DNA of 64,000 nt from Chitinophagaceae bacterium (GTDB lineage: Bacteria > Bacteroidota > Bacteroidia > Chitinophagales > Chitinophagaceae). The notes below the pieces were generated by a model that saw only the letters and a list, made by a program, of their open reading frames with translations, was not told the DNA's origin and made no database searches. The position numbers and the translations under genes were made by a program. The DNA lies in contig JAYURR010000174.1 of the NCBI GenBank assembly GCA_043756605.1, positions 4,641-68,640 of the forward strand, given 5' to 3'. Of this stretch, positions 6,765 to 61,846 are shown in pieces (position 1 is the stretch's first letter; every line of letters begins with the position of its first letter).

Positions 6765-9700
6765 TTATTGTTTTATCAGCTTCTCCACAATGGTTGCATC
6801 ATCTGTTTTAATGTGCAGCATGTAAGGTGCCGATGGAAGTTTATCGAGATCGTTAATGGTAAACCAGTTAAATCCTTTTAAGCCTTTAACCGATTTGCTA
6901 AATACCATACGGCCGTTGATATCAATAAACCTGAAATCAACGGGTGTATTGTGTGTAAGTGTTAAGTACACATCAATTTTACCGGTAAAAGGATTGGGTG
7001 CCACTTTAGTTACCAGTTGCATACCTGCATCAATTCTGATAATCACTATCTGGCTATATTCGAACTTGCCATCAAAATCTACAATCTTTAAGCGGTAATA
7101 ATTTACACCTTTTAGTGGTGCCGGATCTACAAGATCATAACTGGTTGCAGTATTGCTGTTGCCCTTGGCAATTACTGTTGCAAGTTTGGTAAAATTCTGT
7201 CCATCTGCACCACGCTCTACTTCAAAATGTTTGGTATTTAATTCATTGGCTGTTACCCAGTTCAAATCAACCTTTGTACCGTTTAACCGGCCGCTGAAGC
7301 TGATCAGTTTTACGGGCAGTATCTGGCTCCAGGTTACAGTTACCGTTGCAGGCGATGGATCGTATAATCCGGCTGCATCCCTTGCTGCATATTTAAATAC
7401 GGCCTGGTGTGCATCATCATCGGGATCTACCTGTAACAATGCCGGGTTAAAGTTTGTAATTACCTGGTTTAAGGTAGCCGCAATGCCATTATAGTATAAT
7501 ACAGACCTTGTTGGCAATTGGGTAATCATATATGTTTTACCACTGCCCAGTACCCCGTCTTCTGGATCGGTACCTGTTAACCCGCCTGTGATATCATATT
7601 GCACATTGGGGTCATTTCTTGCGTATGTTAAGGTTTTATCATCCGAATCGGGTAAACGTTCTATTCCAAAATTAACTGCGGTAACATTAACTGCGGCTGT
7701 AGTAACCGTAATAATACAGGTTGCTGCACCAGATTTTATACCCGTACCTGCTGCATTATTTACACCGTAGGCATCTCCGGTTGGTGCCCAGTTACCTGCA
7801 ACATAAGATGTACCTGCATCCGCCGGTGGCGAATCGCCGATGTTTACACTGATTGTACTTAAGCGCAGTGTATAATTGGTAAACATATCTGCATTGGCAA
7901 ATGAATAAGCCCCGGTACCACTAATTAAAGTTGTTCTTTGCACAACCTTACCGGTTGAATCAACCAGATATGCAAAAACCGCAGTACCGGTAATATTGCC
8001 AATTGCAGAACCGTTAACCAGGCCATCGGTTAACCCATTGGCATCATGAAACAAGGTGCCGCTGATACTGATTTTATTTTTTGCAATACCAAAATCAAAT
8101 GGTGCCAGGCAGGTTTGTGCACTGGTTGCGGTTATGGCATGTTGCAAAACCGTTGTGGTGTGGTGATAAGGTGGAACAGTTGTTGGATCAAGGCGTGTAA
8201 TATAACATATGGGGTACCTGATGAACTGAATTTTTACATTATCAATATACACCGTATCGGCATCATCTACATTATTATTGGTTAAGAAACGGATATAAGT
8301 TGTTGCTGCAGCATATTGTGTAATATCCTGGTTATAAATATTTACATAAGCGGCATCGGTTGTGCCATCGCCTGCAATTGTAAATACGGTTGCAAAAGCT
8401 GTTCCGTTTGTAGAGGCCTGCACAATCACGTCTTCACCGGCTGTTAAGGTTGCACTTTTTCTGCGGTAAGAGAAACTCATGAATGCATACGAAGCCCCTG
8501 ACAGATTTACCCTTCGGGTTGCTGATACATCATTATCTTTTAACCTGATGGCATTGGTAAAAGCTCCATCTTTATAAATTTCGGCATCTGTGTTTGCTTC
8601 GCTTTGAGCAGGGGTAACGCAAAATGCTGCATTGCCCGGGCCGGTTGAAGGGTCGCCGGCATCTACCCAATCTGTGAGCCATGCTCCAGATCCATCAGAA
8701 CCATTGTTACAGGTTCTGGCACCACCCACACCATCAAAATCATCTTCTACTGTTTTTTCGGGATAAGTTATAAACTGATAAGTACCAGACCCATCAACGG
8801 TAACCGAGTCTTTCAACTCATCCGTATCAATTACGGTATTACAGTTACCATCTACATATAAATACACTTTGCCTCCCGCAACACCGGTACCGCCGTCGTT
8901 ATTAACGCCATCGTCATTTTTATCTAAAAACACGGTACCAGCAATTACGTTTTGTGTAAATGGTGCCGGGCAAATGCTGATATCAACATAAACCGTTGCC
9001 ACATCGCACACAGTGGGCGTAGGTGTGGAGCATACATTGTACTCAAAAGTATCTTTACCGGTATAACCCGTATTAGGTGTATAAATAACCGTACCATTGG
9101 CATTTACAGATACGGTGCCATGTTTGGGCTGCAATAAAGCGGTTGTGCTTACCGAGCCGGGATCTACCACTGCAAGGAAGCCAAAATCGTTTATCAAAAT
9201 AGGTATAGTAACCGGCTGGTTAACCATTGTACGGGCATAATCGTCATTAGCAAAAATGAGTTTTTGTTTACAGAAAGGCTGAATGGTAGAACCCACATCC
9301 CAACTCGGACTACCTACAACTGCTGTAGAAGCATCTTCGCCATAAACCGCTGCCAGTTTAGCGCCGTTGCAGGTAAACACAGCTAAACCGCTCTGATCAT
9401 TATCACTGGCATCGAGTAAGCGCCTGTAATTAAGTGCATTGAGCGTATAAGATACATCATAACGCATACCGCATGGACTAAGCAAACCGGTACTGCCACT
9501 GATATTGCCATTATATTTTACATAAATGGTTGTATTAACTGTTGGTGTAACCCAAACCGGATTATCATTCCTGGTGCCATCTATAGAACCCGGGGCCCAG
9601 GCAATGGTAGCAAAGTCTGTAAGCCTGCTTTCGGCAATCAGGTTAAAAGACCAATCGTATGATGTTCCGGTGTTTCCGCCACCTCCAGGTGTGTAAGAGT

Positions 9701-12700
9701 CTAATATTTCAATAGCAGTAAAAGATTCGCCGGTTGGATTTACAAATTTGTAAGCAGCCGTTGCCGACAAAACAAGTGGAAAACGTATTACAGTTTTAGC
9801 AGGAATAGTTAAAGTGCCGTTAGATGGAATACCTGAAGACCAGTTTATATCTAAAGGCCTGTTTAAACTGTTATATAACATTACCACAGCCGTATCTTTA
9901 ATAGCGGTACTGCTTCCGGTTGTAGGTACCGGCGAGTAATAGGTATTTGAATACCAGGTGGCCGGAAATATAGGTACATCACGTGAGGAGTAATTATCAT
10001 TGCCGCCAAAATGCAGCTCTACACCAATTAATGCCGAAGCTGTAACTGTAGCACCGGATAATACACTGCCATTAACAAATAAAACCTCTCCTTCATTAAT
10101 AGTGGCCGTAGTTTCCAGTGTTCCGTTATTATCCTTATCAATTTCAACAACTGTATTATTCTGTGCTGCTCTTATAAAGAGTGATGTGTACCTGAAATCC
10201 TGGCTGGTAAAGTTCTGGCCTACCGGTATTGTAAATGATGTGCCATAATCTTTAACAGCAGATACATTGGTTTTCATACACTGTACCGCCATAATGGAGG
10301 GTTCTCCACAAACCTGTGTTACTGTTATCTGTCCGCTGGAAGTGATTTTATCTCTTCCATCGTAGAATATATTTGAAACAACCCTGGGATTGGTAGGCAT
10401 TGTATTGTCTAATACAATATTGCCACCGGCAGGGATAATATCAGAAGCATATCCCGGAACAATACCGTTGTAAGGGTTACCATCGCCCCAAACTTTGGTG
10501 GTAGCCTGTAATGGATCCAATGCATTTAGTTCATAACCATCCTCCCACTCATCCCATACTATCGTCATGCCGGGATATGGCATTTTCATACTGATAACCG
10601 TTCTTATATTATTACTTGGCGTAGCCGGACTTCCGGAACTATCCAATGCCATACGGGCTTCATTTTCTGAAAAAGGCAGATAAAACACGTGTGTCTTTGT
10701 TGCTTCCGAGCAGGGATCTATCAGCAAAGGATTTACTGTTAAGTAAATATAAGCTGTTGCACAGGCATTTGTACTATCACAAATCTGGTAAACCAGTGTA
10801 TCCTTACCTGCATAAGATCCATTGGGCAGATAAACCACTTTACCGTTTGATATAAAGCCGGTTCCGTTTCTGGGCTGTGTATTTATGGCAAGTGTAGAAA
10901 CTTTCATATTATTATTGGGATCATAATCATTACCCAAAACATCTACTATTATTGGTGCACCACCTGCCCCGGTGGCAGAATCGTTCAATGCTACCGGCGG
11001 ACAAACCGAGCATATATCAAAAGCCAGCAGATCAGAGTTTTTAATTAAATTTTCATATCCTTCCCTGGCTGTCGCCATCAGGTAATATAAATTGGTTGAG
11101 CCGGGGGTTGTCCATACATATTCATAAGTACGGGTGCAGGTAGTTGAATCTACACAGTTTACCGCATAAGTAGTACCCGGAGGATTAACTCTTAAATCCA
11201 TACCGGTAATATCGCTATAACCAAACGGTGTGGTAACTTTAGCCCTTACATAATAAGTGCTGTTTACCAATCCACTGGTTCTGATGGAGCCGGCCGGATA
11301 TGGTGCATTGTACACATTAAAACTAACAAAATCGATAAAGGTAGAAACCGGCAGCAGGCTTATCCTGGAGGGTTTGCTTGCGCTGTGGTATTCTATCTGG
11401 AACTGTACACCCGGTTGGGCAGAAGTAATATTTAATGCTACAGCCTGGCCCGATGGTACAGTTACGTCGGCACCAAGTGTACCAGTCCAGCTTAATATTT
11501 TTGTACTACTATTATATACGGGGTTGCTTAAACTTATAAAAGTTGTACTGCCGTATTTTAAACTGGCTGTTATAGCCGGATTTACCGGCATGGTACCACT
11601 GGTTACGTTAACATAAACCAGCATTTGTATGGTTTGTGCTTTAATTACCAGGTCGTTGCATAATGCCGGGCTTTGGGTAAATGTGATTGTATTTTGAGAT
11701 GCTGCTGGCTTTATGGGCACTGCTCCTAAAGCCCAGTCTGTTGATGCAGAAGTCCAGTTCATAATTGTAGTTGCTGCACCTGGCTCTGTACTTCCTGCAC
11801 CGGTAATTTCATTACCCGAACTCATATTCCATCTTTGTGTTTGCCCGGCAGTAACTGTAACTGGTTGATTTCTTATTGAAACAACATCATAAACCAGTTC
11901 CCCGCCTGCAGATGTTACATTTACGGACGGGTTTGTTGAACCTGCCTGTTGCGATGCAAATGTTCCTAGCGGAGTAGTTTGGTCTATACCGGTATAGGTT
12001 GTTACATTTACAACTGCACCCCTATCGGGAGCCGAGCTGAAATTAACAACCACATTAGCTGTGCCCGAAGGTGGATTAATCAATCGATAAAGCGCAATAC
12101 GGGCATTGCTATTTAAATTGTTTTCACCAACCAGTGTTAGTGCTGTTGCTCCATAAGTAACACTGGTAACGGTTCTGTTCTTTTGCGAAATACCCACCAG
12201 CATCAGCCTGTTGGCACCTGTACCGGTTGTATGTGCTACGGTTATTGGCATAGTGTTTCCGGTAACCGTATTTGACGCATCTATGGCAATGGGCGCCGTT
12301 GTTGATGAAATGGCATAAGAGGTAGCTGTAGTAGTAATATTAGTTGCTACCGGGTCTATCCTGTCGAGCAACATACCCGGATCGGATAAATACAGCGGCG
12401 TTTGCACCACCGATGGGTTGGCATTAACTATATGTGATGAAGTTGCAGGACCGTTACAACCAGTAGCCGAAGCCGTGATTGCCGAAGATCCAAACCAACT
12501 TGCCACCCAGGTAACCTGTCCGGTAGTTGTATTAATGGTATTACCGCCGGCTAAACTGGCAGCATCTAAACTATAAGTAATGCCTGTATTATTGGTAGCC
12601 GTAGCCGAATAAGTTATGGTTGCAGCACCCTGTGTACGCACCGATTGTATGCCCAACCCAAATACCGGAGTACCTACGGTTGGTGTAATAGTTACGGTAT

Positions 12701-15700
12701 GATTGGCTGTTCTGGGGCCATTGCAACCAGTTGCTGATGCAGTTATGATGGTACTGCCGGTCCAGTTTGCAACATAAGTCACTTCTCCGGTTGAACTGTT
12801 GATTGTATTTCCGGCAGTTATAGCAGCAGCATTCAAACTATAAGTTATACCTGTGGTATTTGTTGCACTTGCAGTATAGGTTACTGTAGCTGCTCCCTGA
12901 CAACGGGTAGATGTGGCACCCAAGGTAAATACCGGAGTACCTACAGTTGGGGTTATAGTTACCACATGTGCTGCAGAAGCAGGCCCATTACAACCTGCTG
13001 CAGAAGCTGTAATGATTGTTGTACCACTCCAGCCTGCAACATACACAACCACACCGGTTGTTGAATTGATGGTGTTACCACCTGTTATGCTGGCTGCATC
13101 AAGAGAATATGTAATAGATGTTGAATTGGAAGCTGTTGCTGTATAACCTACAAAAGCCCCTCCCTGGCAACGGGTGCTGGCAGCCCCCAATGTAAATACC
13201 GGTGTACCTACTGTTGGGGTTATGGTTACGGTATGGTTAGCTGTTGATGGGCCATTACAACCCGCTGCAGTTACTGTAATAATTGAAGTACCCGACCAGG
13301 CTGCATCATAAGTTACAGCACCGGTTGTTGCATTTATTGTATTACCGCCTGTAATACTGGCAGCATCCAGGCTATATGTTCTTGATGTACTGTTGCTTGC
13401 TGTGGCTGTATAGGTAACTGTACCTGCACCCTGGCAACGGGTGGTTGTAGCCCCCAATGTAAATACCGGAGTACCTACGGTTGGTGTTATGGTTACTGTA
13501 TGTATTGCGGTTCTTGGGCCGCTACAACCGGCGGCACTGGCAGTTATGATTGATGTACCACTCCAGCTTGCAACATAGGTTACCACACCCGTTGTTGCAT
13601 TTATACTATTACCGCCCGATATACTGGCGGCATTTAAAGTATAGGTAATTCCGGTTGTAGTTGTTGCTGTAGCATCATATTGTACTGTGCCGGCTCCCTG
13701 GCATCGGGTTGATGTTGCACCCAATGTAAATACCGGTGTACCAACCGTTGGAGTTATAGTTACTGTATGTGTTGCAGTTGATGGCCCGTTACAACCTGTG
13801 GCAGTAACTGTAACTATTGTGGTACCAACCCAGCCTGCAGCATACGTTACTGCACCGGTGGTTGTATTGATGGCATTACCACCAGTAATACTGGCAGCAT
13901 CCAGGCTGTAAGTAATACCTGTATTATTGGTGGCATTTGCAGTATAAGTAACTGTATTAGCATTCTGGCAACGGGTTGATGTAGCCCCCAAAGTAAATAC
14001 AGGTGTACCCACGGTTGGGGTAATGGTTACAGTATGTGTTGCTGTTTTGGGGCCATTACAACCTGTAGCAGTTACTGTAATGGTACTTGTTCCTGTCCAT
14101 GCAGCAACATAACTTACTTCTCCTGTTGATGAATTAATACTGTTTCCACCAGTAATACTGGAAGCATCGAGGCTATATGTTATGCCGGTGTTTGTTGTAG
14201 CTGTTGCTGTATAGGTAACATTTCCGGCTCCCTGGCAACGTGTAGATGTGGCACCAAGTGCAAATACCGGTGTACCAACTGATGCAGTTATGGTTACCAC
14301 ATGCGTTGCAGATGTTGGCCCGCTGCAACCTGCTGCTGTTGCTGTAATGGTAGTAGTACCACTCCAGCCTGCGGCATAAGTAACCGCACCGGTTGTTGTA
14401 TTGATTGAATTACCCGGGAATGCATCTGTTGTTGCATCCAGGGCATAGGTGATACCTTGATTGTTAGCTGCGGTTGCAGTATAAGTTACGGTAGCAGCTC
14501 CCTGGCAACGGGTAGATGTGGCACCCAGCGTAAATGAAGTTGCTCCCAGAATATCGTAGGTTGTAACCGTATGATTGGCCGATCTTGGCCCATTACAACC
14601 GGTTGCAGTTGCTGTAATTACTGAGGTTCCGGTCCATGCGGCAACAAAAGTAACATCACCGTTAATATTATTAATGGTATTACCACCAGCAAGGCTTGCG
14701 GCATCCAGGCTATAAACAATACCTGTGTTATTGGAAGCTGTAGCAGCATATGAAACAGTACCGGCACCAATACATCTTGATGAGGTTGACCCCAAACTAA
14801 ATACAGGGGTGCCAACACCTCCTGTAATAGTAACAATATGCGTTGCTGTTTTAGGGCCTCCACAACCGGTAGCAGTTGCAGTTATGGTAGAAGTACCAGT
14901 CCATAAAACCCAATAGGTTACTGCACCGGTAGCGGCGTTTATAGTATTGCCCCAGGTTAAACTGGTTGCATCCAGGCTGTAGGTTATTCCTGTACTATTG
15001 GAAGCTGTTGCTGTATAGGTTATAGTTCCTGCTCCAAAGCAACGGCTTGAAGTTGCTCCTAATGCAAATACGGGAGTGCCTATGGTTGCTGTAGTTGTAG
15101 CTGTATGATTAGCAGTTGTTGGCCCATTACAGCCCGAAGCTATTGCTGTAATGGTTGAACTGCCAACCCAGGCTACCGTATAATTTACCAATCCGTTTGC
15201 TGAATTGATTGTATTACCCGCAGCTAAACTGGCCGCATCTAAACTGAAAACAATGCCTGTATTATTTGATGCTGTAGCACTGTAATTAACATTTCCACCA
15301 ACCTGGCAACGTGTTGATGTGGCACCCAAGGCAAATACCGGAGTGCCTACTGCAGCTGTAATGGTTACTGTATGGTTTGATGTTCGGGGCCCGTTACAAC
15401 CTGCTGCACTGGCCGTAATGATGGTTGACCCTGTCCAGCCAGCTATATAGGTAACATCGCCGGTTGTAGCATTGATGGTATTACCACCGGTTAATGCTGC
15501 GGCATTCAATGTATAAGTTATGCTTGCTGCATAGGTTGCATTGGCAGTATAAGTAACCGTTGTAGCCCCCTGGCATCGGGTTGATGTTGCACCCAGCGTA
15601 AATACCGGATTTTGCACATCATCATTTGTTGTGGCGGTATGTGTGGCTGTTGATGGGCCGTTACAACCAGATGCTGTAGCTGTTATAATACTAACTCCAA

Positions 15701-17558
15701 CACGTCCTCCATTATAAAATACAGCACCGGTAGATGCATTTATTGTAAGCCCGGCCGCAATACTGGCTGCATCAAGGCTATAAACAATAGCTGTTGAGTT
15801 GGCCGCTGTGGCTGCATAAGTTACTGTAGCACTTGCCTTACAACGGGTAGATGTTGCGCCCAGCGTAAATACAGGTGTAGATACTGTAGGGGTAATAGTA
15901 ACGGTATGCGATGCCGTTTTAGGGCCATTACAACCTGCCGCCGAAACTGTAATTAAAGAGGTTCCGCTCCAGGTGGCTACATAAGTTACATCGCCGGTGG
16001 TTGCATTTATTGTATTGCCTGCGCCCAAACTGGTTGCATCAAGGGCATAAGAAAAACCTGTTGCATTGCTTGCAGTAGCATTATAATTTACGGTACCTGC
16101 TGCCTGGCAGCGGGAAGATATAGCTCCCAGATCAAAAGCAGGGGTGCCCACAGTAGGGGTAATGGTTACGTCATGTTCGGCAGTTAAAGGGATGCCACAA
16201 CTGGCTGCGCTGGCCGTAATGGTTGATGTACCGTTCCAGCCAGCCACATAAGTTACGGCACCGGTTGTTGCATTAATGGTGTTACCAAATGAAATACTCA
16301 ATGCATCCAAACTATAGGTAATACCTGTTGTATTGGAAGCAGTGGCTGTATAGGTTACTGTACCGGCACCCTGGCACCGGGTTGATGCAGGGCCATCATT
16401 AAATACTGGTGTAGTTGCAGGCACACTTGTTGTAGCCAGGTGATCGGCCGTTGTTGGGCCGTTACAACCTGCTGCCGCAACAGTAATTGTAGATATGGCT
16501 TCCCAATTTGCTGTATAGGTAACTGCACCTGTAGCTGCATTAATTGAATTTCCTGCCGCCTCACTTACCGCATCTAATGTATAGGTTAAACCGGTATTAT
16601 TAGAAGCAGAGGCTGTATAGGTTACTATGCCTGCGCCCTTACAACGCAAAGATGTGCCGCCCAGGCCAAATACCGGGGTACCCACATTTGGTGTAATAGT
16701 AACAGCTATGCTGCCTGCGCCTGCACTCCATGCAAAAGTTGTATTATCCCGTGAGCGTACGTAATAAGTACCTGATGTATTAACTGTATAAGATGAAGTT
16801 GAATTAGCTGTACTTGTACCCGCAGCAGTTGTTTGCCAATACCAGGTTTCGCCAACGGGTGGCGTACCTGTAAAATTCATGGTTACACCTGGCGAAGCAC
16901 ATTGTGGCGAATTGGAAGTTGGGTTGGCCGGATTAGCAGGCACAGGTACAGCGGTATTTACAGTACCATTTAAAGTAACTTCATCATTTCTCCAGTTAAC
17001 TAACAGCGCAGTATTTACATTTAATAAATAAAACCTGAACGTAACCGCACCAATATTTGTAAAACTGCCTGCTGGCAGGTTGATTACATCGGTTTGCATA
17101 ATTAATGTAACCGTATCCACAGCAATATTTGAGGTAAAATTATCAAGACTTGAACGTAAAACCCATTTGGTAACACCGCTTGCCGGGTCTCTATCATAAC
17201 GCTGGTTGAGAGACAGTTGAGTAAGTGTTAGATTATATCCTGAGGACGGCGTAACGGTAAATCCAAAGTACTCACTGGTGTTTACTGTATTGGTACCATT
17301 TGCCCAGTCCTGCGTTTCAAACTCGTTCGTCCGGGCTTTACAACTTATTCCTCCGGCAAAAACATAGTTACTAAATGTTGCATTAGCAGGCTGGGTGGTA
17401 ACAGCGGGATTTTGATGAGGGCAGGTTCCGAATCCTGTAAAGGAATAGTAACCCAACTGAGCTGTGGTTGTTAAGCTCAATGTAAACACCAAAAACCCTG
17501 TTATAAGGGCCTTTAATTGCTTTTGGAATATATTCCGGTTAGTAAAAATTGGTTTCAT
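6765..17558 (-). CDS. Giant (~3597 aa) T9SS type-A-sorted surface protein/adhesin
   Basis: Start moved to ATG 17558 ([11 protein letters not shown]...[12 protein letters not shown] signal peptide). Contains 16 Thr-rich Ig/PKD-like repeats, cadherin-like Ig domains (VALNDSA...DVLGND; ANDDYA...ILIND), an IgGFc-binding-like region, an SdrD-B-like domain and a C-terminal LPVKL...APNPFTG...KLIKQ sorting domain. Confidence 0.9.
   Translation of the reverse strand: [3597 protein letters not shown]
12420..16694 (-). repeat. 16 tandem 89-aa (267-bp) intragenic repeats
   Basis: Consensus [30 protein letters not shown]...[39 protein letters not shown].HTVTI; tgtaaataccgg recurs at 13191, 13458 and 13725 (267-bp spacing). 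Confidence 0.95.
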
Positions 17559-18017
17559 GTTGCTTTTATTTAGGATAACAGTGGATAAACTTTTATAAAC
17601 TATGTTTATAAAATCAATTTTTAAATACTTAAAAAAAATTGGTAAATAAAGCCATGCTTTTGCAGTTAGGGGCTGCACATAACCTGTAAACTTGTGTAAG
17701 TCTGGCTTCATTTTGTTTGGATATTGGTTAAATTCAAATTGTTAATAACTAACTAACTAACTGATAATCATAGCATTTAATAGATATTCTACAAAAAACA
17801 GTGTAGAATAACAACTACATAAACGTAATTATTGTGCAATTAGTATTAATACTTGGTAGTTTTTTCACTAACCCTGCATCAACATTTTAATTTTATGCCG
17901 TGGCAGATACGGTATTTTATTTTGCAGGGATTTTGCTCCTTAAAAAAACGATATCTTTTAAACAAACGGAATGGTTTAGATTTGGCTCCCGATAATTAAC
18001 GGGCTAAAAACAAACAC

Positions 18018-18671
18018 ATGAATATTCAGGATTTCCCTATAACTATCGGTTTAATAATTGCCAACGTAATTTTTTCTTTAATTGGTTTTAGCAATGCCGC
18101 TTTTATTGATAAAACCATTATGTGGCCATACCGGGTTGCCCGGGAGAACCAGTACCACCGTTTTATAAGTTCGGGTTTTTTACATGCCGATTGGATGCAC
18201 CTTATCTTTAACATGTTTACCTTTTTCTTTTTTGGTATTGGTTTAGAGAGTTATTTAAAAGCATACGGCCTTGGTGGTAATATATCTTACCTGTTGTTAT
18301 ATTTTTTGGCATTAATTGTTTCTGATATTCCCAGTTACCTAAAGCATAAAGATGATAATAATTACCGGTCGCTGGGTGCTTCGGGTGCGGTAAGTGCCGT
18401 GGTTTTTGCAGCAATTGTGTTTAATCCGTGGAGCAGTATCCGGCTATACGGTTTTATAAAAATGTCGGCAGCATTATTTGCCGTATTGTACATTGTGTAT
18501 TGTGTTTACATGGGCAAAAAAAACAGCGATCATGTAAACCATGATGCTCATCTGTGGGGATCTTTATTTGGCCTGGCATTTATACTGGTTTTAATAGGCG
18601 TAGTAAGACCCGAATTGTTTACCCCCATTTTTGAACAGCTTAAGCACCCCAGTTTATTTGGCAGAGAATAA
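18018..18671 (+). CDS. Rhomboid family intramembrane serine protease
   Basis: FLHADWMHLIFNM, SLGASGAVS (catalytic Ser), NHDAHLWG (catalytic His). Confidence 0.93.
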   Translation: MNIQDFPITIGLIIANVIFSLIGFSNAAFIDKTIMWPYRVARENQYHRFISSGFLHADWMHLIFNMFTFFFFGIGLESYLKAYGLGGNISYLLLYFLALIVSDIPSYLKHKDDNNYRSLGASGAVSAVVFAAIVFNPWSSIRLYGFIKMSAALFAVLYIVYCVYMGKKNSDHVNHDAHLWGSLFGLAFILVLIGVVRPELFTPIFEQLKHPSLFGRE

Positions 18672-20081
18672 TGATAGCTGCAATATATTTTTAGCGCTGT
18701 CCGTTATTTTAAACCTATCATCAATACGCAGGCCAACCACCCAGATGATTTTTTTATCCATTTCAATAACCCATGTTTTTTCTTTTTGGGTGAGGGATAA
18801 TTTCTGATCAATTAAAAACCGACTTAGTTTTTTCTTCTTTTGCATGCCCAGCGGATAAAAATAATCGCCGGGTTTGCATTTGCGGAGGAGTAAGGGGAAT
18901 TTTATTTCAGATGCATTTACTTGGGCGATTTGGTTTGAGGTTTGTAGTTGGTGGTTGGTGGTTGGGAGCAGTTCAATATTAATTGAACCCTGCTGAAAAT
19001 CAACTTTTATATCATTTTTTTCTATAAAAATATTTTGCGCCTCTATAGTTTTATTTGGCGCAATAATAAGCCAGTTGCGGTTTTTAATGATGCGGTGTGT
19101 GGCTGATGAAATATATTTTCCGGTTTCGCTTTTTAATAAATCAACAACTTCATTTGTTTGATGTGCTGTAAAACCGTAGTCTTTTACAATCTCGTAAAGT
19201 ATTGTGTGCAATGCTTCGGTTTTCTGTAATTTTAAAACAGGGATATGTATTTCGTTGCCTTTTTGCTCCAGTAATTTTTTTTTGGCAAGATGTACAGATT
19301 GCTGGTACAGCGTTTCAATTTCCCGGAAACGTTCAATATTGTTCAGCAAATTATCCTGCACCTGCGGAAACACTTTTTGCAGATCGGGAATGAGTTGGTT
19401 GCGAAAATAATTGCGGGTGTATTTATCGGATGCGTTGGAAGAATCTTCCACAAAATTTAAATTATTTGCTTTTGCAAATGCAGCAATGTCTTCTTTTTTG
19501 GCAAAGAGTAAAGGCCGGATAATATTGCCTTGTTTTGGTAAGATACCATGCAGCCCATTAATGCCGGTGCCTTTAAAGAAATTCATTAAGAGGGTTTCGA
19601 TGTTATCGTTGGCGTGGTGTGCAGTGATAAGAAAATTGGCAATGGGCAATTGGCAATCCGGCTCTGAAGTTTCAATCTCTTTTGCATTTTGCATATTGCC
19701 TATTGCCAATTGCCCATCGCCCTTTGCATATTGCATATTGCCTGTTAACTCTGCAAACCAGTTGTAACGCAATTCCCTGGCGGCAACCTGTATGCTGAGT
19801 TTATTTTCGGTTGCAAATGTTTGTGTGTCGAATTTTTTAACCTGTACTTCAACATCATATTTTTTACCAAGTTCTTTTACAAACGCTTCATCACGTTCGC
19901 TTTCATCTCCACGCAATTGAAAGTTGCAGTGAGCAATGGTAAAATCGTAACCAGCCTGTTTGCAGAGTTCGCAAAGCACTACACTATCTACTCCCCCGCT
20001 TACGGCAAGCAACAGCTTATCTTTTGGTTGAAAAAGATTTTTGTGTTTGATGTATTGCTGAAATTTTTCTAAAAGATTCAT
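18654..20081 (-). CDS. tilS: tRNA(Ile)-lysidine synthetase carrying a repeat-derived insertion
   Basis: AVSGGVDS PP-loop, AARELRY, TAHHANDNIET, YTRNYFR, C-terminal KKKLSRFLID. Confidence 0.96.
   Translation of the reverse strand: MNLLEKFQQYIKHKNLFQPKDKLLLAVSGGVDSVVLCELCKQAGYDFTIAHCNFQLRGDESERDEAFVKELGKKYDVEVQVKKFDTQTFATENKLSIQVAARELRYNWFAELTGNMQYAKGDGQLAIGNMQNAKEIETSEPDCQLPIANFLITAHHANDNIETLLMNFFKGTGINGLHGILPKQGNIIRPLLFAKKEDIAAFAKANNLNFVEDSSNASDKYTRNYFRNQLIPDLQKVFPQVQDNLLNNIERFREIETLYQQSVHLAKKKLLEQKGNEIHIPVLKLQKTEALHTILYEIVKDYGFTAHQTNEVVDLLKSETGKYISSATHRIIKNRNWLIIAPNKTIEAQNIFIEKNDIKVDFQQGSINIELLPTTNHQLQTSNQIAQVNASEIKFPLLLRKCKPGDYFYPLGMQKKKKLSRFLIDQKLSLTQKEKTWVIEMDKKIIWVVGLRIDDRFKITDSAKNILQLSLFSAK
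18929..18965. repeat. Heptamer tract inside the 3' part of tilS
   Basis: Coding strand caaccac-caaccac-caactac-aaacctc-aaaccaa, encoding PTTNHQLQTSNQ. Confidence 0.6.
19634..19742. repeat. Heptamer-arm palindromic element in frame inside tilS
   Basis: ggcaatg/ggcaatt repeats (19634-19657) are inverted relative to attgcct-attgcca-attgccc (19695-19717); two ttgcat(a/t) tandem tracts are also present. Confidence 0.85.
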
Positions 20082-20106
20082 ACCCCTGTCCCCTAAAGGG
20101 GAACTT
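20082..20106. repeat. Solo C/G hairpin arm abutting the tilS start codon
   Basis: acccctgtcccctaaaggggaact; on the tilS strand it reads agttcccctttaggggacagggt-ATG, resembling the DUF559 element right arm. Confidence 0.65.
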
Positions 20107-20228: not shown

Positions 20229-20262
20229 GAACCAAAAACTAAAAACCACAAACCTCAAACTA
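20229..20262. repeat. Heptamer arm starting at the TPR gene stop codon
   Basis: Minus strand TAG-tttgagg-tttgtgg-tttttag-tttttgg-tt. Confidence 0.6.
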
Positions 20263-20675: not shown

Positions 20676-21419
20676 ATGAAGATCTTAGTTTGTATCAGTA
20701 AAACCCCCGATACTACCGCAAAAATAGCCTTCGCCGATAACAATACGAAATTCGCTGCAGATGGCGTACAATGGATCATCAACCCGTACGATGAATGGTA
20801 TGCCCTGGTAAGAGCCATTGAGTTGAAGGAAGCCGATGCTGCAACAATAATACATTTGGTTACCGTTGGAGGTGCCGACAGCGACCCAATCATCCGTAAA
20901 GCATTGGCCCTTGGTGGCGATGAATCTTTCCGGGTAAATGCTGATAGTCATGATAGTTTTTACATTGCATCGCAAATTGCAGAAATTGCAAAAAAAGGCA
21001 GCTACGATTTAGTGTTTACCGGTAAAGAAACCATTGATTATAATGGATCTTCTATTGGCGGCATGGTGGCTGAACTGCTTGACCTGCCCTATGTTTCACT
21101 GGCAACTAAATTTACACTGGAAGGAACGGATGCCATTATTAACCGTGAAATTGAAGGTGGAGAAGAAACCAATAAAGTAGCATTACCGCTGGTGGTTAGC
21201 TGCCAAAAGGGAATGGCTGAACAACGAATACCTAATATGAAAGGCATTATGGGTGCCAGAAGCAAACCATTAACTGCTGTTGAGCCGGTTGCGGTTAATG
21301 CGCTGACAAGCGTTGCATCTTTTGAATTGCCACCTGCAAAGGCTGGAGTAAAATTAGTTTCAGCAGATAATCCTGAAGAGTTGGTAAGATTATTACATGA
21401 AGAAGCAAAAGCAATTTAA
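20676..21419 (+). CDS. etfB: Electron transfer flavoprotein beta subunit
   Basis: MKILVCISKTPDT, INPYDE, GKETIDY, RIPNMKGIMGA; start moved to ATG 20676. Confidence 0.95.
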   Translation: MKILVCISKTPDTTAKIAFADNNTKFAADGVQWIINPYDEWYALVRAIELKEADAATIIHLVTVGGADSDPIIRKALALGGDESFRVNADSHDSFYIASQIAEIAKKGSYDLVFTGKETIDYNGSSIGGMVAELLDLPYVSLATKFTLEGTDAIINREIEGGEETNKVALPLVVSCQKGMAEQRIPNMKGIMGARSKPLTAVEPVAVNALTSVASFELPPAKAGVKLVSADNPEELVRLLHEEAKAI

Positions 21420-21881
21420 TGGATAGTTGATAATGGTATAATGGATAATGTTTTAAATTTATAACATCACTCATTACCAAAACTATACATTATGAAAGAG
21501 AATATTTTAAAAGACAAGAGTTTCAATTTTGCGATAAGAATTGTAAATCTTTATAAATTTCTTAAGTAAGAACATGGTGAATATATTTTATCGCAGCAAT
21601 TAATAAGAAGCGGAACATCAATCGGGGCAATAGTTAGAGAAGCTGAACATGCAGAAAGCATTAAAGACTTTGTACATAAATTGAGTATTGGTTTAAAGGA
21701 AGCAAATGAATCGAAGTATTGGCTTGATCTGCTTTTTGCGACAGAGTTCATTACAAAAAAAATGTACGAATCGTTAAACAAGGATTGTGAGGAGCTTTTA
21801 AAATTGCTTATTGCAAGCGTAAAAACGAGTAAGCTTAAAATTAAATAAATTATCAATTATCCATTATTAAATTATCCATTG
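21417..21881. mobile_element. Heptamer-inverted-repeat cassette carrying a four-helix-bundle gene
   Basis: Left arm taatggatagttgataatggtataatggataatg (21417-21450) includes the etfB stop; right arm aattatcaattatccattattaaattatccattg (21848-21881) ends 2 bp before the etfA ATG. Mobility is inferred. Confidence 0.65.
21492..21848 (+). pseudogene. Four-helix-bundle protein (TIGR02436/23S rRNA IVP family) with an in-frame stop
   Basis: Manual translation MKENILKDKSFNFAIRIVNLYKFLK*EHGEYILSQQLIRSGTSIGAIVREAEHAESIKDFVHKLSIGLKEANESKYWLDLL...; TAA at 21567-21569. Confidence 0.88.
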
Positions 21882-21883
21882 TC

Positions 21884-24626: not shown

Positions 24627-25208
24627 ATGAAAAAAATAGAATTGGAAATAGTGGCTTTATCGCACAGCATTACCCAAACCCATTCGTATGCAGTTGTGCT
24701 GGGCGAGTTAAACGGATTACGCAGGCTGCCGATAGTTATTGGCGGCTTTGAGGCGCAGGCTATTGCTGTAGCTTTGGAACGTATGAGCCCAAGCAGGCCG
24801 CTTACCCACGACCTGATGAAGAATTTTATGATGGCCTTTAATGTAGAACTGCACGAAGTGGTTATAAATGATCTGCAGGAAGGAATTTTTTACAGCAAAC
24901 TGGTTTGCAGCTCAGCAAACGATACGGTTGAAATTGATTCCCGTACATCGGATGCTTTGGCTTTGGCTGTACGTTTTGGCTGCCCTATTTATACTTATGA
25001 TAATATTTTAGAACAGGCCGGAATACTGATGGAAGATGATGGCAAACCAAAATCACCCACCACAGTTACAACCGAAACAGTTGGAGGCGATAATTTAAAA
25101 TCATTATCGCTGGAAGAACTGGAAGGTTTGTTGACCGAAGTGCTGGATCATGAAGATTATATAAGGGCCATTGCTATACGGGATGAGATAAAAAGCAGGA
25201 AGAAGTAA
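24627..25208 (+). CDS. Bifunctional nuclease family protein (DUF151) with C-terminal UVR domain
   Basis: RRLPIVIGGFEAQAIA, RPLTHDL, DSRTSDALALA, EDYIRAIAIRDEI. Confidence 0.9.
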   Translation: MKKIELEIVALSHSITQTHSYAVVLGELNGLRRLPIVIGGFEAQAIAVALERMSPSRPLTHDLMKNFMMAFNVELHEVVINDLQEGIFYSKLVCSSANDTVEIDSRTSDALALAVRFGCPIYTYDNILEQAGILMEDDGKPKSPTTVTTETVGGDNLKSLSLEELEGLLTEVLDHEDYIRAIAIRDEIKSRKK

Positions 25209-25341
25209 TGGATAATTGTTTAATGGATAATGGATAATTTTTCAAATTCGTTGCAGTTTTTCAATAGCAAACTTTAAGATACTTAGCATACATTTCCATT
25301 CTAAAACATTATCCATTATAAATTATCTCATTATCCATTAA
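25206..25341. repeat. Empty TAATGGA-heptamer inverted-repeat element filling the stop-to-start gap
   Basis: taatggataattgtttaatggataatggataatt (25206-25239) ... cattatccattataaattatctcattatccattaa (25307-25341); ispE ATG at 25343. Confidence 0.82.
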
Positions 25342-28517: not shown

Positions 28518-30356
28518 TTATCTAATAAATTGAACATTACCATAAGGATTATTACATCCCCCACAACCACCATTAATAATATTATAAGGGCAGCCAGGTA
28601 TAGCCACACGCCATGTATAAGTACCCGGGTCGGCTGGTTGCCCGCCATATCTTCCATTCCAAGAGTAACTGGCAGCGGTTGGGCCTGTAGAGTAAAAAAC
28701 CAGGTTCCCCCAACGGTTCCAAATCCAAAATTCTCCTCCTGAATAATCTTCTAAGTTTATTGGTCTGAATACATTATTAGGAGGATTAGAAGAAGGTATA
28801 AATGCATTTGGGATGGCAACTTTTCTTGGGTTATGGTGCAAAACAGTTTGATTGTTAGAACCTATACAACCTGCATAATTTGTATTTGCTACAGTTAAAG
28901 TGTATGGATAAGATATAGGGGTTTGCGCTGGTGCATTTACAGCAGGTGGAGTTTGAGGTGGTAATAATATTGTTGGCTTTTCATCACTTGTACTACTAAG
29001 GTAAGTTGCTGGTGACCATGTGAATGTATAGTTTAGATTTGTTATGCTAGGATCACGATATTGTAGATTATAAGTTGGTATTAATTGAACGGCAGATGGA
29101 TTACAGTTATAAACACGATAAGTCTTTGCATCAACCACCATTTTTTGTACATAATAGGTTATAACATTTGATAATACAAATTGTGTTGGGTTTGAAATAT
29201 TATAAGCGTACATTCTGTATTCGTATAGACCGGCCACGCTCTCTGTTCTTACATAATTCATAGTAGTTGCACTTGGAATATCAATCCAATTTCCCCCATT
29301 GGTACTTTTTTGCCATTTGAAGCCTGGGTTTGCATATGGAATTGTTGGCGTTGGCCAACGGGAGTATATGTTAACTGTACCACTATTGCATGTATATGAT
29401 TTAACGTCGATAGTAGTGGGAGAAAATGAGGCAAGTATTGGCGGATAACAGGGTGCAAATGAAATGTCATCAACACAAAAATCATTCCCCTGCCCATCAT
29501 TATTTTTGTTTATAAGGATAATTTGTACAGCGGTAATACCACTGGGAAGATTGAACAAAAAAGATATTTTTTTCCATGGATCAGATGGGTCATACTCTAT
29601 TCGATAAGAGCCACTTTGTTGAATTAAATTATTTGACAAGTCATATATTTCAAATTGAAGTCGAGGTCGTTCAAAAGATGGATAGTTTGCTAAATTTGCT
29701 ACGTAAACTGAAAATTCATAACCAAAGGCTTGAGTTAAGCCTGTTGCGGTGGTTCTATATACCTCTCCTCGATTTTCATCACCATCAACCATCAACATAT
29801 AACCATTTACATCACCGGGAGTGTGATCTTGAATTAACCCTAACCAATTGCCATTGCACCCCACAGTATTGTTTGATATAGTGTAATATCCTGGCTGGAG
29901 GTTGCAAATTGGAATATAAGGATAAGTTATCGTCCCTGGAGGTAAAGCTGGTCCGGGATTAAAACCAGTTCCAAAATCTTCATAAATTGCCGCTGGTCCT
30001 AAAACACCGCTACATGTTTCTAAAATGCCTTCAACAAAATTTACAATATCAACATTTGCAAATCCGGTTTGGCTACCTAAATCTTCATAAACTTCAATAG
30101 AACCCGTTGCGTTTTCCCAGGCTGGAATATTATCCCATTGAATAGTTACCGTATGTTTATCAGAAGATAAAACAGTCCCCAGATACACTGTCCAAGTAAC
30201 ATTTGCATAATTTTCATAAATACTGCCCCAGCTTGGCCAATTAGCTGTGTAAGTTTCTACTGCTCCGGGCGTTACAGATTTGTTGCCCACTATAAAATCA
30301 TCTGCCTTAACAAAAAAGCAAAGTATGCTTAGCATACAGGTAAATAAAAGTTTCAT
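28518..30356 (-). CDS. T9SS type-B (gliding-motility-associated CTD) surface protein
   Basis: Signal peptide; DHTPGDVNGYMLMVDG domain; C-terminal IPNAFIP...FWIWNRWGNLVF...WNG...GTY...VQFIR. Confidence 0.88.
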   Translation of the reverse strand: MKLLFTCMLSILCFFVKADDFIVGNKSVTPGAVETYTANWPSWGSIYENYANVTWTVYLGTVLSSDKHTVTIQWDNIPAWENATGSIEVYEDLGSQTGFANVDIVNFVEGILETCSGVLGPAAIYEDFGTGFNPGPALPPGTITYPYIPICNLQPGYYTISNNTVGCNGNWLGLIQDHTPGDVNGYMLMVDGDENRGEVYRTTATGLTQAFGYEFSVYVANLANYPSFERPRLQFEIYDLSNNLIQQSGSYRIEYDPSDPWKKISFLFNLPSGITAVQIILINKNNDGQGNDFCVDDISFAPCYPPILASFSPTTIDVKSYTCNSGTVNIYSRWPTPTIPYANPGFKWQKSTNGGNWIDIPSATTMNYVRTESVAGLYEYRMYAYNISNPTQFVLSNVITYYVQKMVVDAKTYRVYNCNPSAVQLIPTYNLQYRDPSITNLNYTFTWSPATYLSSTSDEKPTILLPPQTPPAVNAPAQTPISYPYTLTVANTNYAGCIGSNNQTVLHHNPRKVAIPNAFIPSSNPPNNVFRPINLEDYSGGEFWIWNRWGNLVFYSTGPTAASYSWNGRYGGQPADPGTYTWRVAIPGCPYNIINGGCGGCNNPYGNVQFIR

Positions 30357-30427
30357 AAGTGAAATTTTTGGTTTAAAAAATTGTTAGTATTTGATTTTTC
30401 AAAAACACTGGATAACAACTATTAACA

Positions 30428-31432
30428 TTAAAATTTTATAAACTTGTCTTCTAAAAACCGTTCTCTTGTATTCGCTCCTTTATAAATTAAAGAGATTTCA
30501 ATTGCTCCTTTTTGATTGGTATTTTTTGTAGTGATGTTAATATCATACGAAGTATTTAAAGTAAACCCACCAAAATTTAAACCAGCAGTTGGTATTATTG
30601 AAGTTCCTCTGATAACAGTATTTCTTAACCATGCCCCTAAAAGAAATTGATTATTTCTGTTTAACTTAAGCTGAAAGTTTAAACCGCCAAATAAGTCATT
30701 AACTGATTTATTTGAATAACTCATCAGAAATGCTGCATACAGTTTTTTCTCATCAGAGATTGTTTTTTCCCAGCCTACATGAGTCCAAATCTGCCGGGGC
30801 AGGTTAAATTCTCCTCCCTGAAAAACACGGTTTGGTTTTGTAATATGATACATAGAAACTCCGGCAGTAAAAAAATTGTTTGAATTAAACCTACCCTGAT
30901 AAATTAAACCTGCGTTAAGATCGGTATATGTAAAATCTACATCATTGAGCTGAAAAATATTAATTGCATAGCCAGAGTTAATCCAGGATAAAAGCTGATC
31001 TTCAAACACCAGGGTTGGTTTTTTTAGTTGCCTTCGTGCAAAAGTTGTTTGAAAGCCAATGCCAAGTTGTTGCTTACCCTCATCATCAAGTGCTTTTTGG
31101 TAGGCAAGTGAAATTGCTAAATAAGTGTTTTTAATTCCCTCTGTTTGGCTAATTTCGGAAAGCCCTAAAATACCAATTGCAAAACAGTCGTTCTCAGGTG
31201 CTATCTTATTTAAAATTTTCGAATCGAAAAATGTAGTGCTTTGGGTATAAATTTTTTCCTGCGCATTTACTTCTCGTCTAAAAGCACCACCAATTCGATA
31301 GCTTTTATTATACCGCCCTGTATTGGCAGGATTAATTAATAAAGGAGATGAATAAAATTGAGAAAATCTTATCTGGCATTCAGCAGTTTCAGTAATTAAA
31401 AAAAAGGTAATTAAAAAGAAATAATGTTTCAT
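30428..31432 (-). CDS. PorP/SprF family T9SS membrane protein
   Basis: QIRFSQFYSSPLLINPANTG, N-terminal signal (start moved to ATG 31432), SYDIN...GAIEISLIY. Confidence 0.88.
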   Translation of the reverse strand: MKHYFFLITFFLITETAECQIRFSQFYSSPLLINPANTGRYNKSYRIGGAFRREVNAQEKIYTQSTTFFDSKILNKIAPENDCFAIGILGLSEISQTEGIKNTYLAISLAYQKALDDEGKQQLGIGFQTTFARRQLKKPTLVFEDQLLSWINSGYAINIFQLNDVDFTYTDLNAGLIYQGRFNSNNFFTAGVSMYHITKPNRVFQGGEFNLPRQIWTHVGWEKTISDEKKLYAAFLMSYSNKSVNDLFGGLNFQLKLNRNNQFLLGAWLRNTVIRGTSIIPTAGLNFGGFTLNTSYDINITTKNTNQKGAIEISLIYKGANTRERFLEDKFIKF

Positions 31433-31564
31433 TTTTATGAATTTTGACTGACCTACCAAATTTGAAGTATTACAAAACAAAGAAAATTACAAATAAATAA
31501 AAATCCTAACCCATTAATAGATACTTTATCCAAATTTTGTTTACTTTACATAAAATATCAATTT

Positions 31565-46220: not shown

Positions 46221-47003
46221 ATGCATGTTCCAACAATGGCAGAAATGATGGCGAAGGGTGAAAGCCCCGAAATTTTATTTTGGGTAGGCTGCGCCGGAAG
46301 TTTTGACCAGCGGGCACAAAAAATAACCAAAGCATTTGTAACCATTTTGGATAAGGTTGGTATCAACTACGCCATCTTGGGTAAAGAAGAAATGTGTACC
46401 GGCGATCCGGCCCGCCGTGCCGGCAACGAATTTATGTTTCAGATGATGGCTTACCAGAATATTCAGATTTTGAATGGTTATGGTATTAAGAAAATTGTAA
46501 CGGCCTGTCCGCATTGTTTTAATACATTGGGTAATGAATATCCTGAATTGGGCGGCACTTACGAAGTAATTCATCATGCAACTTTTTTACAGCAATTAAT
46601 TGACGAAGGCAAAATAAAAATGACCGAAGGCGGTACTTTTAAAGGCAAAAAAATTACTTACCACGATAGTTGTTATTTGGGCCGTGCCAATAATATTTAC
46701 GAAGCACCACGCAAAGTGCTGGAAGCCTTGGATGTTTCTTTAGTTGAGATGAAACGCTGCCGCAGCAACGGTTTGTGCTGTGGTGCCGGCGGTGCACAAA
46801 TGTTTAAAGAGGAAGAAAAAGGTGAAATCCGCATTAATATAGATCGCAGTAACGAAGCCATTGCAACCGGTGCCAGCGTTATTGCAGCGGCATGCCCGTT
46901 TTGTAATACTATGATGACAGATGGTGTAAAAAACAGTAATAAGGAAGATGAGGTGCAGGTGTTGGATATTGCGGAGTTGGTTGCTGCATCAATGGCAAAC
47001 TAA
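46221..47003 (+). CDS. (Fe-S)-binding CCG-domain protein (GlpC/HdrB-like)
   Basis: WVGCAG, CTGDP, ACPHC, YHDSCYLGR, LCCGAGG, ACPFC. Confidence 0.9.
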   Translation: MHVPTMAEMMAKGESPEILFWVGCAGSFDQRAQKITKAFVTILDKVGINYAILGKEEMCTGDPARRAGNEFMFQMMAYQNIQILNGYGIKKIVTACPHCFNTLGNEYPELGGTYEVIHHATFLQQLIDEGKIKMTEGGTFKGKKITYHDSCYLGRANNIYEAPRKVLEALDVSLVEMKRCRSNGLCCGAGGAQMFKEEEKGEIRINIDRSNEAIATGASVIAAACPFCNTMMTDGVKNSNKEDEVQVLDIAELVAASMAN

Positions 47004-47034
47004 TGGATAATTTAGTAATGGATAATTGATAATG
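47001..47034. repeat. Solo TAATGGA-heptamer arm beginning with the upstream stop codon
   Basis: taatggataatttagtaatggataattgataatg is 31/34 identical to the reverse complement of 21848-21881. Confidence 0.85.
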
Positions 47035-61287: not shown

Positions 61288-61378
61288 AATTGGCAATGGG
61301 CAATGGGCAATGGGTAATGGGCAACAGCCAATGGGCAAAAATATACTGCTCATTGCTTGTTGCATATTGCTTATTGCC
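61288..61378. repeat. GGCAATG-heptamer inverted-repeat element overlapping the lptE-like 5' end
   Basis: aattggcaatgggcaatgggcaatgggtaatgggcaa (61288-61324) ... cattgcttgttgcatattgcttattgcc (61351-61378). Confidence 0.82.
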
Positions 61379-61846
61379 TTATTCAATTTCGCTACCTGCA
61401 AATATGGCTTTAAAGATATTGGTGGTTTACCAACCGAGGTAAAAACCTTTCGTGTAAATTATTTTGAAAATAAAGCCGAATATAAAAATCCGCAATTAAG
61501 CCCGCAGGTTACCGAAAGACTAAAACAAAAAATAATCGGCACTACCAGGCTGCGGCAAACAAACGATGAGGATGCACATTACGATATCAGCGGTTATGTT
61601 TCGGGCTACTACACCAGCACAACAGGCATCAGCGGCAACACTACCAGTCTTAACCGGTTAACGGCCACTTTTCATCTTGTATTTAAAAATACACTGGATG
61701 AAAAAAAGAATTTTGAAGCAGATGTAACTTACAGTCTTGATTTTGATGCCAACCTGAGCTTGAGCCAGGTTGAGCAGGCCCGGGGCGATGAAATATCAAA
61801 AAATTTAACCGATGCTATTTTTAATAAAATTTTTTCTAACTGGTAA
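61331..61846 (+). CDS. lptE: LptE-like LPS assembly lipoprotein
   Basis: Lipoprotein signal ending FAT-C; YFENKA, ISGYV, RLT...DAIFNKIFSNW; position between the sigma-54 regulator and secG. Confidence 0.72.
   Translation: MGKNILLIACCILLIALFNFATCKYGFKDIGGLPTEVKTFRVNYFENKAEYKNPQLSPQVTERLKQKIIGTTRLRQTNDEDAHYDISGYVSGYYTSTTGISGNTTSLNRLTATFHLVFKNTLDEKKNFEADVTYSLDFDANLSLSQVEQARGDEISKNLTDAIFNKIFSNW

Follow-up and report, generated by a model that had tools for sequence, protein, structure and literature searches.

Of the 5-11-nt repeat classes found in prokaryotes, that of heptanucleotide tandem arrays is the most abundant, with slippage as a proposed cause, as far as the work of Mrazek (2007) is summarised in PMC4679880 and PMC4692102. 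Such arrays constitute the commonest long simple sequence repeats (LSSRs) of bacteria, their origin and role being debated (PMC4679880; PMC4692102), and described examples include TAACTGA arrays in Beggiatoaceae, cyanobacteria and Bacteroidetes (PMC4679880), as well as GGGNATC arrays in Xanthomonas and Nostoc (PMC4692102). In this work, we characterized a heptamer array that forms a palindrome in frame within tilS, the tRNA(Ile)-lysidine synthase gene, of a Chitinophagaceae bacterium (64,000 nt of contig JAYURR010000174.1, hereafter the window). Our results show that this insert is an array-based repeat evolving in situ at a hot spot common to the family, and it is probably a translated heptanucleotide-array hairpin, of an LSSR class resembling the cyanobacterial short tandemly repeated repetitive (STRR) sequences, lodged in a permissive, disordered connection of the TilS protein.

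STRR units such as CCCCAGT, TTGGTCA and CAACAGT occur in heterocystous cyanobacteria, where heptamers of this type were reportedly found by Vioque in 1997 inside the RNase P RNA gene. The Rickettsia palindromic elements (RPEs), in turn, are said to have been described in 2000 by Ogata et al. as protein-coding palindromes. According to the summary given in PMC10969869, they are palindromic repeats located in frame in unrelated housekeeping genes and translated as an extra peptide, which is tolerated by the protein fold. An earlier note on this DNA had drawn both analogies, and had read the tilS insert as a mobile palindrome tolerated in a loop of the enzyme.

The components of the tilS locus are the following:

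18654..20081, minus strand: tilS, tRNA(Ile)-lysidine synthase, an open reading frame (ORF) of 475 aa, host gene of the heptamer element
19742-19680, minus strand: left (5') arm on the coding strand, nine heptamers GGCAATN/TGCAAWN, translated GNMQYAKGDGQLAIGNMQNAK (Tandem Repeats Finder, TRF, period-7 rows 19680-19699 and 19689-19743)
19679-19659, minus strand: spacer, i.e., the hairpin loop, 21 nt (3 x 7, in register), GAGATTG AAACTTC AGAGCCG, part of KEIETSEPD
19658-19638, minus strand: right (3') arm, three inverted heptamers GATTGCC AATTGCC CATTGCC, translated (D)CQLPIA (TRF row 19634-19657)
Predicted tryptic peptides from the translated hairpin segment: GDGQLAIGNMQNAK and EIETSEPDCQLPIANFLITAHHANDNIETLLMNFFK

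The protein displays the N-terminal PP-loop domain (Pfam PF01171, 4.6e-47 in the profile search), with the ATP-binding motif SGGxDS present as SGGVDS at residues 28-33, and the C-terminal substrate-binding domain (PF11734, TilS_C, 2.2e-09, residues 400-466); in the Protein Data Bank (PDB) it matched the TilS structures 1wy5 (2.4e-39), 3a2k (3.3e-27) and also 1ni5. Exactly 37 residues (TGNMQY...CQLPIAN, residues 113-149) separate WFAEL from FLITAHH, the very count given in the earlier note. Query residues 113 to 151 aligned with chain residues 121 to 129 of 1wy5, and residues 114 to 148 with residues 116 to 120 of 3a2k, 1ni5 being likewise short at this point. Since the solved structures are short over the RYNWFAEL-FLITAHH interval (7 residues in the Aquifex TilS and 3 in that of Geobacillus), about 30 residues are extra in the window protein.

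At the DNA level, the element comprises 105 nt in which nine units (GGCAATA TGCAATA TGCAAAG GGCGATG GGCAATT GGCAATA GGCAATA TGCAAAA TGCAAAA), the three-unit spacer and the three inverted units follow one unbroken 7-nt register. The ggcaat arms and inverted attgcc arms reported previously are thus real, and 20 nt of them (19638-19657 and 19702-19721) are 95% complementary. The predicted RNA fold reaches -45.5 kcal/mol (z = -4.72), and none of 200 shuffled sequences was as stable. Rfam yielded no family at gathering score in the window, and its single match on the insert (MIR399, E = 0.025) is a chance hairpin match. In an AlphaFold2 model built with 36 homologues (mean predicted local distance difference test, pLDDT, of 75), residues 116-145 display pLDDT values below 50 and lie between helix 97-113 and strand 151-153, so that the mapping proposed in the earlier note places the insert in a disordered connection, which the Pfam profile and the PDB alignments bypass. 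In alpha/beta nucleotide-binding folds, the helix-to-strand connection is usually found on the side away from the active site and, by this usual topology, the loop would be located there too.

For comparison, we used the 120 closest proteins (P0001-P0120; 68-84% identical, several of them labelled Ferruginibacter) and the genome loci of 80 species-level Chitinophagaceae (Ferruginibacter, Hanamia, Ginsengibacter, Segetibacter and Puia), these relatives being metagenome-assembled genomes (MAGs). Across the 80 species the loop carrying the insert (site 1) is hypervariable, ranging from 4 to ~55 residues, and most of its versions are periodic by 7 residues because they are translated heptamer arrays: the best autocorrelation lag was 7 or 14 in 52 of 66 species, with a mean autocorrelation of 0.49 at lag 7 vs ~0.25 at other lags. 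Hence, the relatives do not all carry the equally long, non-repetitive loop that the earlier note had named as contrary to its reading. The units vary by species, including GGCAATN/ATTGCCN, AATTCCT, CAACTGC, CAACGAG, CGACGAC, GGTATCA, CCATTCA, TTGAACC and others, and in all species the arrays abut the conserved strand alike. Alignment of relatives, as had been recommended, also revealed an empty site: the loop 'EELVVAKSMQFILTAHH' of L007/P0042 keeps a 13-residue, repeat-free pattern, resembles that of outgroup P0159 (EELRVAENFQLIATAHH), and has the length that is modal among distant TilS representatives (39-58% identity; 13 residues in 79 of 125). Because this loop is modal in distant TilS and kept by L007/P0042, the repeat-free 13-residue state is, from the sequences compared, evidently ancestral, and the arrays a derived feature of Chitinophagaceae.

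The tilS ORFs of all 80 species are intact. Within 5,532 nt of site-1 segments from 66 species, no stop codon occurs in frame vs 96 and 145 in the other two frames, and therefore the segment must stay open. The insert thus appears to be translated and kept open for reading, and nothing in the sequences suggests its excision; none of the RNA runs searched for the insert sequence contained it. The encoded 30 residues would be a tolerated passenger loop playing no role in lysidine synthesis. Regarding the level at which the units are maintained, the match to the unit consensus in the clade carrying GGCAAT alleles was 0.78, 0.76 and 0.82 at codon positions 1, 2 and 3, respectively (chi-square p = 0.14), while in the rest of tilS from the same taxa the identity to the window was 0.48-0.74 at position 3 vs 0.87-0.95 at position 2. 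As the units match equally at all codon positions, the force keeping them is not selection on the peptide, and the constraint that keeps the tilS units alike acts on the nucleic acid.

The history of the window copy can be followed through its relatives. In L081 (P0003) and L082 (P0002), whose TilS proteins are 84% identical to that of the window, the flanks and the right arm are as in the window and the spacer is homologous (KGIETTESD vs KEIETSEPD in the window), as it is in L008; one clean gap of 21 nt (three units) between colinear flanks separates the window element from these three relatives. Alleles of the GGCAAT/ATTGCC type with the spacer end E-x-x-D/N-C-P/Q-L-P-I-A were found down to ~70% protein identity (L012, L013, L018, L028 and L030), with a left arm of ~2 to 12 units across the clade and protein lengths that step by 7 aa. 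Furthermore, in 25 clear arrays the distance between units was at most 1.4 within an array vs 4.1 between species for units at equivalent positions (4.7 for random pairs), and whole arrays displayed the same substitution at the same position of every unit (ATTGCC to ATTCCC or ACTGCC), which together indicate concerted evolution. Neighbour-joining trees of TilS were left unused for counting gains and losses, given that the radiation is poorly resolved and P0003 falls apart from P0001/P0002 despite their common element.

With these findings, the following course of events may be proposed. The array would have entered the tilS loop long ago, in a Ferruginibacter-like lineage, and units would since have been gained and lost by slipped-strand events, with only net multiples of three units surviving within the gene. 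Concerted evolution would homogenise the units within an array, and the arms may stay complementary because intrastrand template switching takes place in the hairpin, or because other genomic copies act as donors for conversion. An entire allele might at times be replaced, either by recombination between lineages or by a new insertion.

Compared with RPEs, the tilS element shares the in-frame insertion in a conserved gene and, judging from the sequence and the model, a presumably fold-compatible position. RPEs are discrete, of about 100-150 bp, with a family consensus and conserved peptides, whereas the tilS element has no full-length consensus and is made of 7-nt units that change in number and sequence and are vertically shared. 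As in the STRR arrays of the RNase P RNA gene, heptamers lie where a hairpin or loop of an essential gene tolerates them, and the gene becomes longer without loss of function; that RNA gene is free of frame constraint, whereas tilS keeps only net multiples of 21 nt. The analogies drawn in the earlier note are therefore apt as such, but extend neither to the whole-length consensus of RPEs nor to STRR sequences proper, since the window units are GGCAATN, CAAACCN and TAATGGA and the relatives are Chitinophagaceae MAGs.

A second array lies in frame within the same gene:

18931..18965, minus strand: site 2, second in-frame tilS array, CCAACCA CCAACCA CCAACTA CAAACCT CAAACCA, within LPTTNHQLQTSNQ (TRF)

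This site corresponds to the loop at residues 374-384, between two beta strands of the AlphaFold2 model, and in 45 of the 79 species compared the best lag was 7, with differing units (peptides TTNHKPQTTN, TQNSKLKTQN, VANCQLPIAN and FNIQYSILN). Ranked under stringent thresholds, the top three period-7 arrays of the 64 kb include two that lie within tilS.

The site-2 array is itself interrupted in some species. A mini-hairpin of ~20 nt, CCTGCC-N-ACCGG-N-CAGGCAGG, is found at the same point in L013, L074, L028 and L036, which belong to different clades, and is read as PPAGQAG, LLTGQAG, LPTGEAG and LDTGQG; other nested palindromes occur at this site in L009, L014, L019 and L024. These palindromes look like very small dispersed repeats landing in heptamer arrays, always in frame. 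A further palindrome, TCCCCTAAAGGGGA, is located at 20089-20102 of the window, 8 nt upstream of the tilS start codon, and its CCCCTTTAGGGG motif also appears in frame in the tilS loop of relatives (SPFRG or APLRG; e.g., L004, L014, L020 and L024).

Beyond tilS, the window holds many dispersed heptamer arrays. A census by TRF rows gave 16 such rows of period 7 vs 1.7 per dinucleotide-preserving shuffle; strict period-7 scans caught only the 2-4 strongest, the units being degenerate at one or two positions. Over the 64 kb examined, these loci lie mainly at gene boundaries, those at 20230, 21417, 21847, 25206, 25290, 47001 and 61288 abutting stop or start codons. The second member of the GGCAATG family, which the earlier note had correctly recognised at 61288, and the other arrays are as follows:

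61288..61383, plus strand: second GGCAATG-family hairpin, fold -46.3 kcal/mol, z = -6.0, with the left-GGCAATG/right-ATTGC order seen in tilS and a short loop between the arms
61288-61338, plus strand: its left arm, GGCAATG x ~7, located in the 46-nt spacer that follows the sigma-54 activator gene, with the lptE start codon (61331) inside its last units
61347-61383, plus strand: its right arm, CATTGCT TGTTGCA TATTGCT TATTGCC (4-5 ATTGC-type units), encoding the LptE signal-peptide core LIACCILLIA
21417..21450, plus strand: TAATGGA-type, stop-containing array whose first unit gives the TAA stop of etfB, inverted partner of 21847-21883
21847..21883, plus strand: inverted ATTATCC/CATTATC-type array, ending at the etfA start codon (21884)
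25206..25340, plus strand: inverted TAATGGA/TCCATTA arrays filling nearly the whole spacer from the stop (TAA) of a bifunctional-nuclease-domain gene to 3 nt before the start of a GHMP-kinase gene (25343)
20230..20260, minus strand: TTTGAGG TTTGTGG TTTTTAG TTTTTGG array, beginning at the TAG stop of a TPR gene, upstream of tilS
47001..47034, plus strand: single TAATGGA-type array, beginning at the TAA stop of a CCG-domain gene

The neighbours of the 61288 hairpin were named by Pfam (Sigma54_activat and LptE). The tilS and 61288 copies share the unit only, their spacers being unrelated and their arms having 9+3 vs 7+4-5 units. As its right arm encodes the hydrophobic signal-peptide core of the lipoprotein LptE, the 61288 copy is the second case in the window of a coding heptamer arm, and its stem could occlude the initiation of lptE translation. 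Between species, the array at 21417-21450 is 85-94% identical (74-82% for etfB DNA) and that at 21847-21883 is 86-97% identical. Unit sharing within vs between genomes (exact, 5.9% vs 2.6%; with at most one mismatch, 16.5% vs 10.8%) was discarded as a line of evidence, being too weak and confounded by orthology.

These arrays have much in common with the known LSSR and STRR-like repeats: dispersed tandem 7-nt units, mostly intergenic and a few bases from stop or start codons; stop-containing units that end ORFs (TAATGGA in the window, TAACTGA in the known case; PMC4679880); tandemly inverted sets; copy numbers varying between relatives at a locus; and stop-free orientations sometimes located in ORFs. 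They differ in their units (GGCAATN, CAAACCN and TAATGGA) and host family, and in that the tilS array lies in the middle of an essential enzyme, at one of two loops that are hot spots throughout the family, under a constraint that operates at the nucleic acid level. In the literature searched, we found no description of heptamer arrays at two hot-spot loops of an essential enzyme. [quoted passage not shown]

The same unit was also found in unrelated genes. When metagenome contigs were scanned for four GGCAATN units, 80 loci with GC contents from 0.32 to 0.72 were obtained. In L108, L112, L114, L121, L159 and L106 (GC 0.51-0.61), (GGCAATC)4 blocks with sharp limits are placed in frame (SAIGNRQSAI, or QLPIADCRLPIA when on the other strand) within genes of other taxa whose products, as read from the translations, would be MutL, ProA, RibD, a xanthine dehydrogenase-like protein, a cytochrome c peroxidase and a membrane protein. 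In L108 and L121, the block is placed in the loop of a second palindrome (AGCCGACGTGAGGAGGCTC ... GAGCCTCCTCACGTCGGCT). Arrays of one unit evidently do reach unrelated sites, as judged from these contigs.

The source being a metagenome, and depth spikes being present at 19688-19721, where the unit is common to many other loci, the insert might represent a repeat collapsed or chimerically joined into tilS during assembly or binning. Nevertheless, Logan contigs from four sediment-metagenome runs cover 19300-20100 with zero gaps, two runs being identical to the window and two representing a strain with 5 single-nucleotide differences in 494 nt, none of them in the insert, and a contig from another study (16 differences over 333 nt) crosses the insert without any indel. 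Such independent contigs span the whole insert and both flanks, and orthologous inserts, likewise in frame, are present in over 20 related species and metagenome proteins, which makes the artefact that the earlier note had allowed for extremely improbable. A joint skipping 339 nt (19454 to 19794), observed in one contig of run X3 at a depth of 3.4 and with a short side of 25 nt, was taken as a stray community match. Alternatively, a discrete mobile palindromic element, RPE- or MITE-like and with the arrays as its arms, may have transposed into tilS recently or repeatedly, independently in each lineage. The recurrence of the unit family and arm order at 61288-61383 is consistent with such an element, and so are the ancestral-looking empty site of a close relative (L007/P0042, 88% identical to occupied neighbours), the allele classes incongruent with protein similarity, the sharp-ended (GGCAATC)4 blocks in unrelated genes of other taxa (proteins named from sequence), and the mini-hairpins nested at one point of the site-2 array in four distant species. 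However, L081, L082, L008, L013 and L012 carry orthologues of the window copy with homologous spacer and flanks, and the orthology in spacer and register extends down to ~70% TilS identity; no target-site duplication or fixed termini were found, the flanks TTAACA ... AATTTT lacking any direct repeat; a simple insertion site is not what the alignment with the empty L007 allele displays; the two window copies differ in spacer and length; the unit number goes from 0 to more than 12 per arm; and no transposase, RAYT (Y1 transposase), integrase or reverse transcriptase is encoded in the 64-kb window, which represents ~1-2% of the genome. Given this orthology, the lack of termini, the sharing of the heptamer unit only between the window copies, the many other units that occupy the same loop family-wide, and the scarcity of hairpins, the mobility of the tilS copy can be inferred at best, and we consider a transposed element unlikely. 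From the mobile palindrome proposed earlier, the extra, repetitive, palindromic and in-frame segment within a low-pLDDT loop is retained, while the discrete, newly landed element is not.

Several observations also weigh against a heptamer array that simply evolves in situ. A significant hairpin was detected at site 1 in only 8 of 57 species, and therefore periodicity, not the palindrome, is the general feature. On short time scales no slippage was observed, as the strains 5/494 nt and 16/333 nt apart have equal unit numbers. Allele class tracks the rest of TilS only weakly: of 120 proteins, 41 have the class of their nearest neighbour (13.5 on average and 28 at most under permutation). P0003 and P0014, 91% identical elsewhere, carry alleles that are unrelated, P0014 and P0027 have an allele with the same nested insert in common at 82% identity, and P0042, which keeps the ancestral loop, shows 88% identity to occupied neighbours. 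This incongruence, part of which could stem from chimeric metagenome contigs, is more in line with replacement or recombination than with gradual change in situ, and suggests cassette-like exchange or recurrent replacement of site-1 alleles. Moreover, GGCAAT/ATTGCC is kept in lineages with near-saturated synonymous sites, a retention that needs either selection or continuing conversion, and the presence of the same unit at separate loci and in foreign genes requires a seeding route beyond slippage. Selection for a function of the segment itself, as an mRNA hairpin controlling tilS (by pausing ribosomes, or by offering RNase III a site in its 20-bp stem) or as a flexible peptide loop, would account for units conserved at the nucleotide level whatever the codon position, for the strong stem (z = -4.7), for the occupancy of both tilS loops throughout the family, and for the non-coding arrays at a four-helix-bundle ORF between etfB and etfA, whose conservation (85-97%) exceeds that of the flanking etf genes (67-83%). 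We find it improbable, since significant hairpins are limited to few species, free variation between species is seen in units, lengths and arm combinations, the insert is absent in some close relatives and most distant TilS, and the peptide is predicted to be disordered. Quite unlikely, too, is a reading in which the arrays, far from being passive microsatellites, arise and are renewed through a dedicated process that is specific for unit length and both seeds arrays at preferred sites and overwrites them. The tilS loops would then be "array nurseries" with cassette-like exchange, and the nucleotide-level conservation of arrays, within tilS as well as at the four-helix-bundle ORF, would reflect a heptamer duplex or RNA stem recognised by a host factor; candidates are, for the process, a copying activity that is templated or primed by a hairpin, or else targeted conversion with master copies as donors and, for the factor, RNase III or the four-helix-bundle protein. 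The translated array hairpin, with a permissive loop as its host, therefore remains the explanation that we favour.

As a model, the tilS locus offers a natural experiment within a conserved essential gene: its flanks are alignable in at least 80 species, an ancestral empty state is available, and the reading frame acts as a filter, so that rates of unit gain and loss, concerted change, coupling of the arms and allele replacement become readable. It also means that, in free-living Bacteroidota of soil and sediment, the protein-coding palindromes known from Rickettsia find a counterpart built of arrays, and the in-frame blocks in housekeeping genes of other phyla bear on the growth of protein loops and linkers. 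For annotation purposes, such arrays account for odd, low-complexity inserts with a 7-residue period in otherwise conserved enzymes. The aspects most worth pursuing are the conservation at the nucleic acid level and the cassette-like distribution of alleles.

Additional features of the window were recorded. The units of the 20230-20260 array belong to the complement family of the tilS site-2 units, which lie 1.3 kb downstream on the same strand. The 465-nt spacer between etfB and etfA contains the four-helix-bundle ORF (21493-21846; TIGR02436, 8.6e-29), with an in-frame TAA at codon 26 and flanked by inverted TAATGGA/TCCATTA arrays, which reach as far as the stop of etfB on one side and the start of etfA on the other; the arrays around it are 85-97% identical between species vs 67-83% for the flanking etf genes. 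The same module was found in L014, L024, L055, L058, L059, L012 and the nearest relative, L081, where the contig end cuts it, and its layout recalls the 23S rRNA intervening sequences that bear ORFs. Horizontal transfer of the module, raised by a protein identity of 97% vs 68% for TilS, was rejected: its DNA is 0.88 identical vs 0.82-0.83 for the flanks, and it is therefore vertical and conserved, with no recent move. A giant ORF of 3,648 aa (6765-17711, minus strand) contains seven tandem 267-nt repeats (12660-14535, 70% matches) and probably encodes a surface or adhesin-type protein, because PorP/SprF and CHU_C type IX secretion genes are located at 28518-31480. Finally, a small DUF559 endonuclease-like ORF (5e-29; 59599-60015) lies between a MiaB-like radical-SAM gene and the sigma-54 activator gene and resembles the four-helix-bundle ORF in being a small gene that stands alone between the members of a housekeeping cluster.

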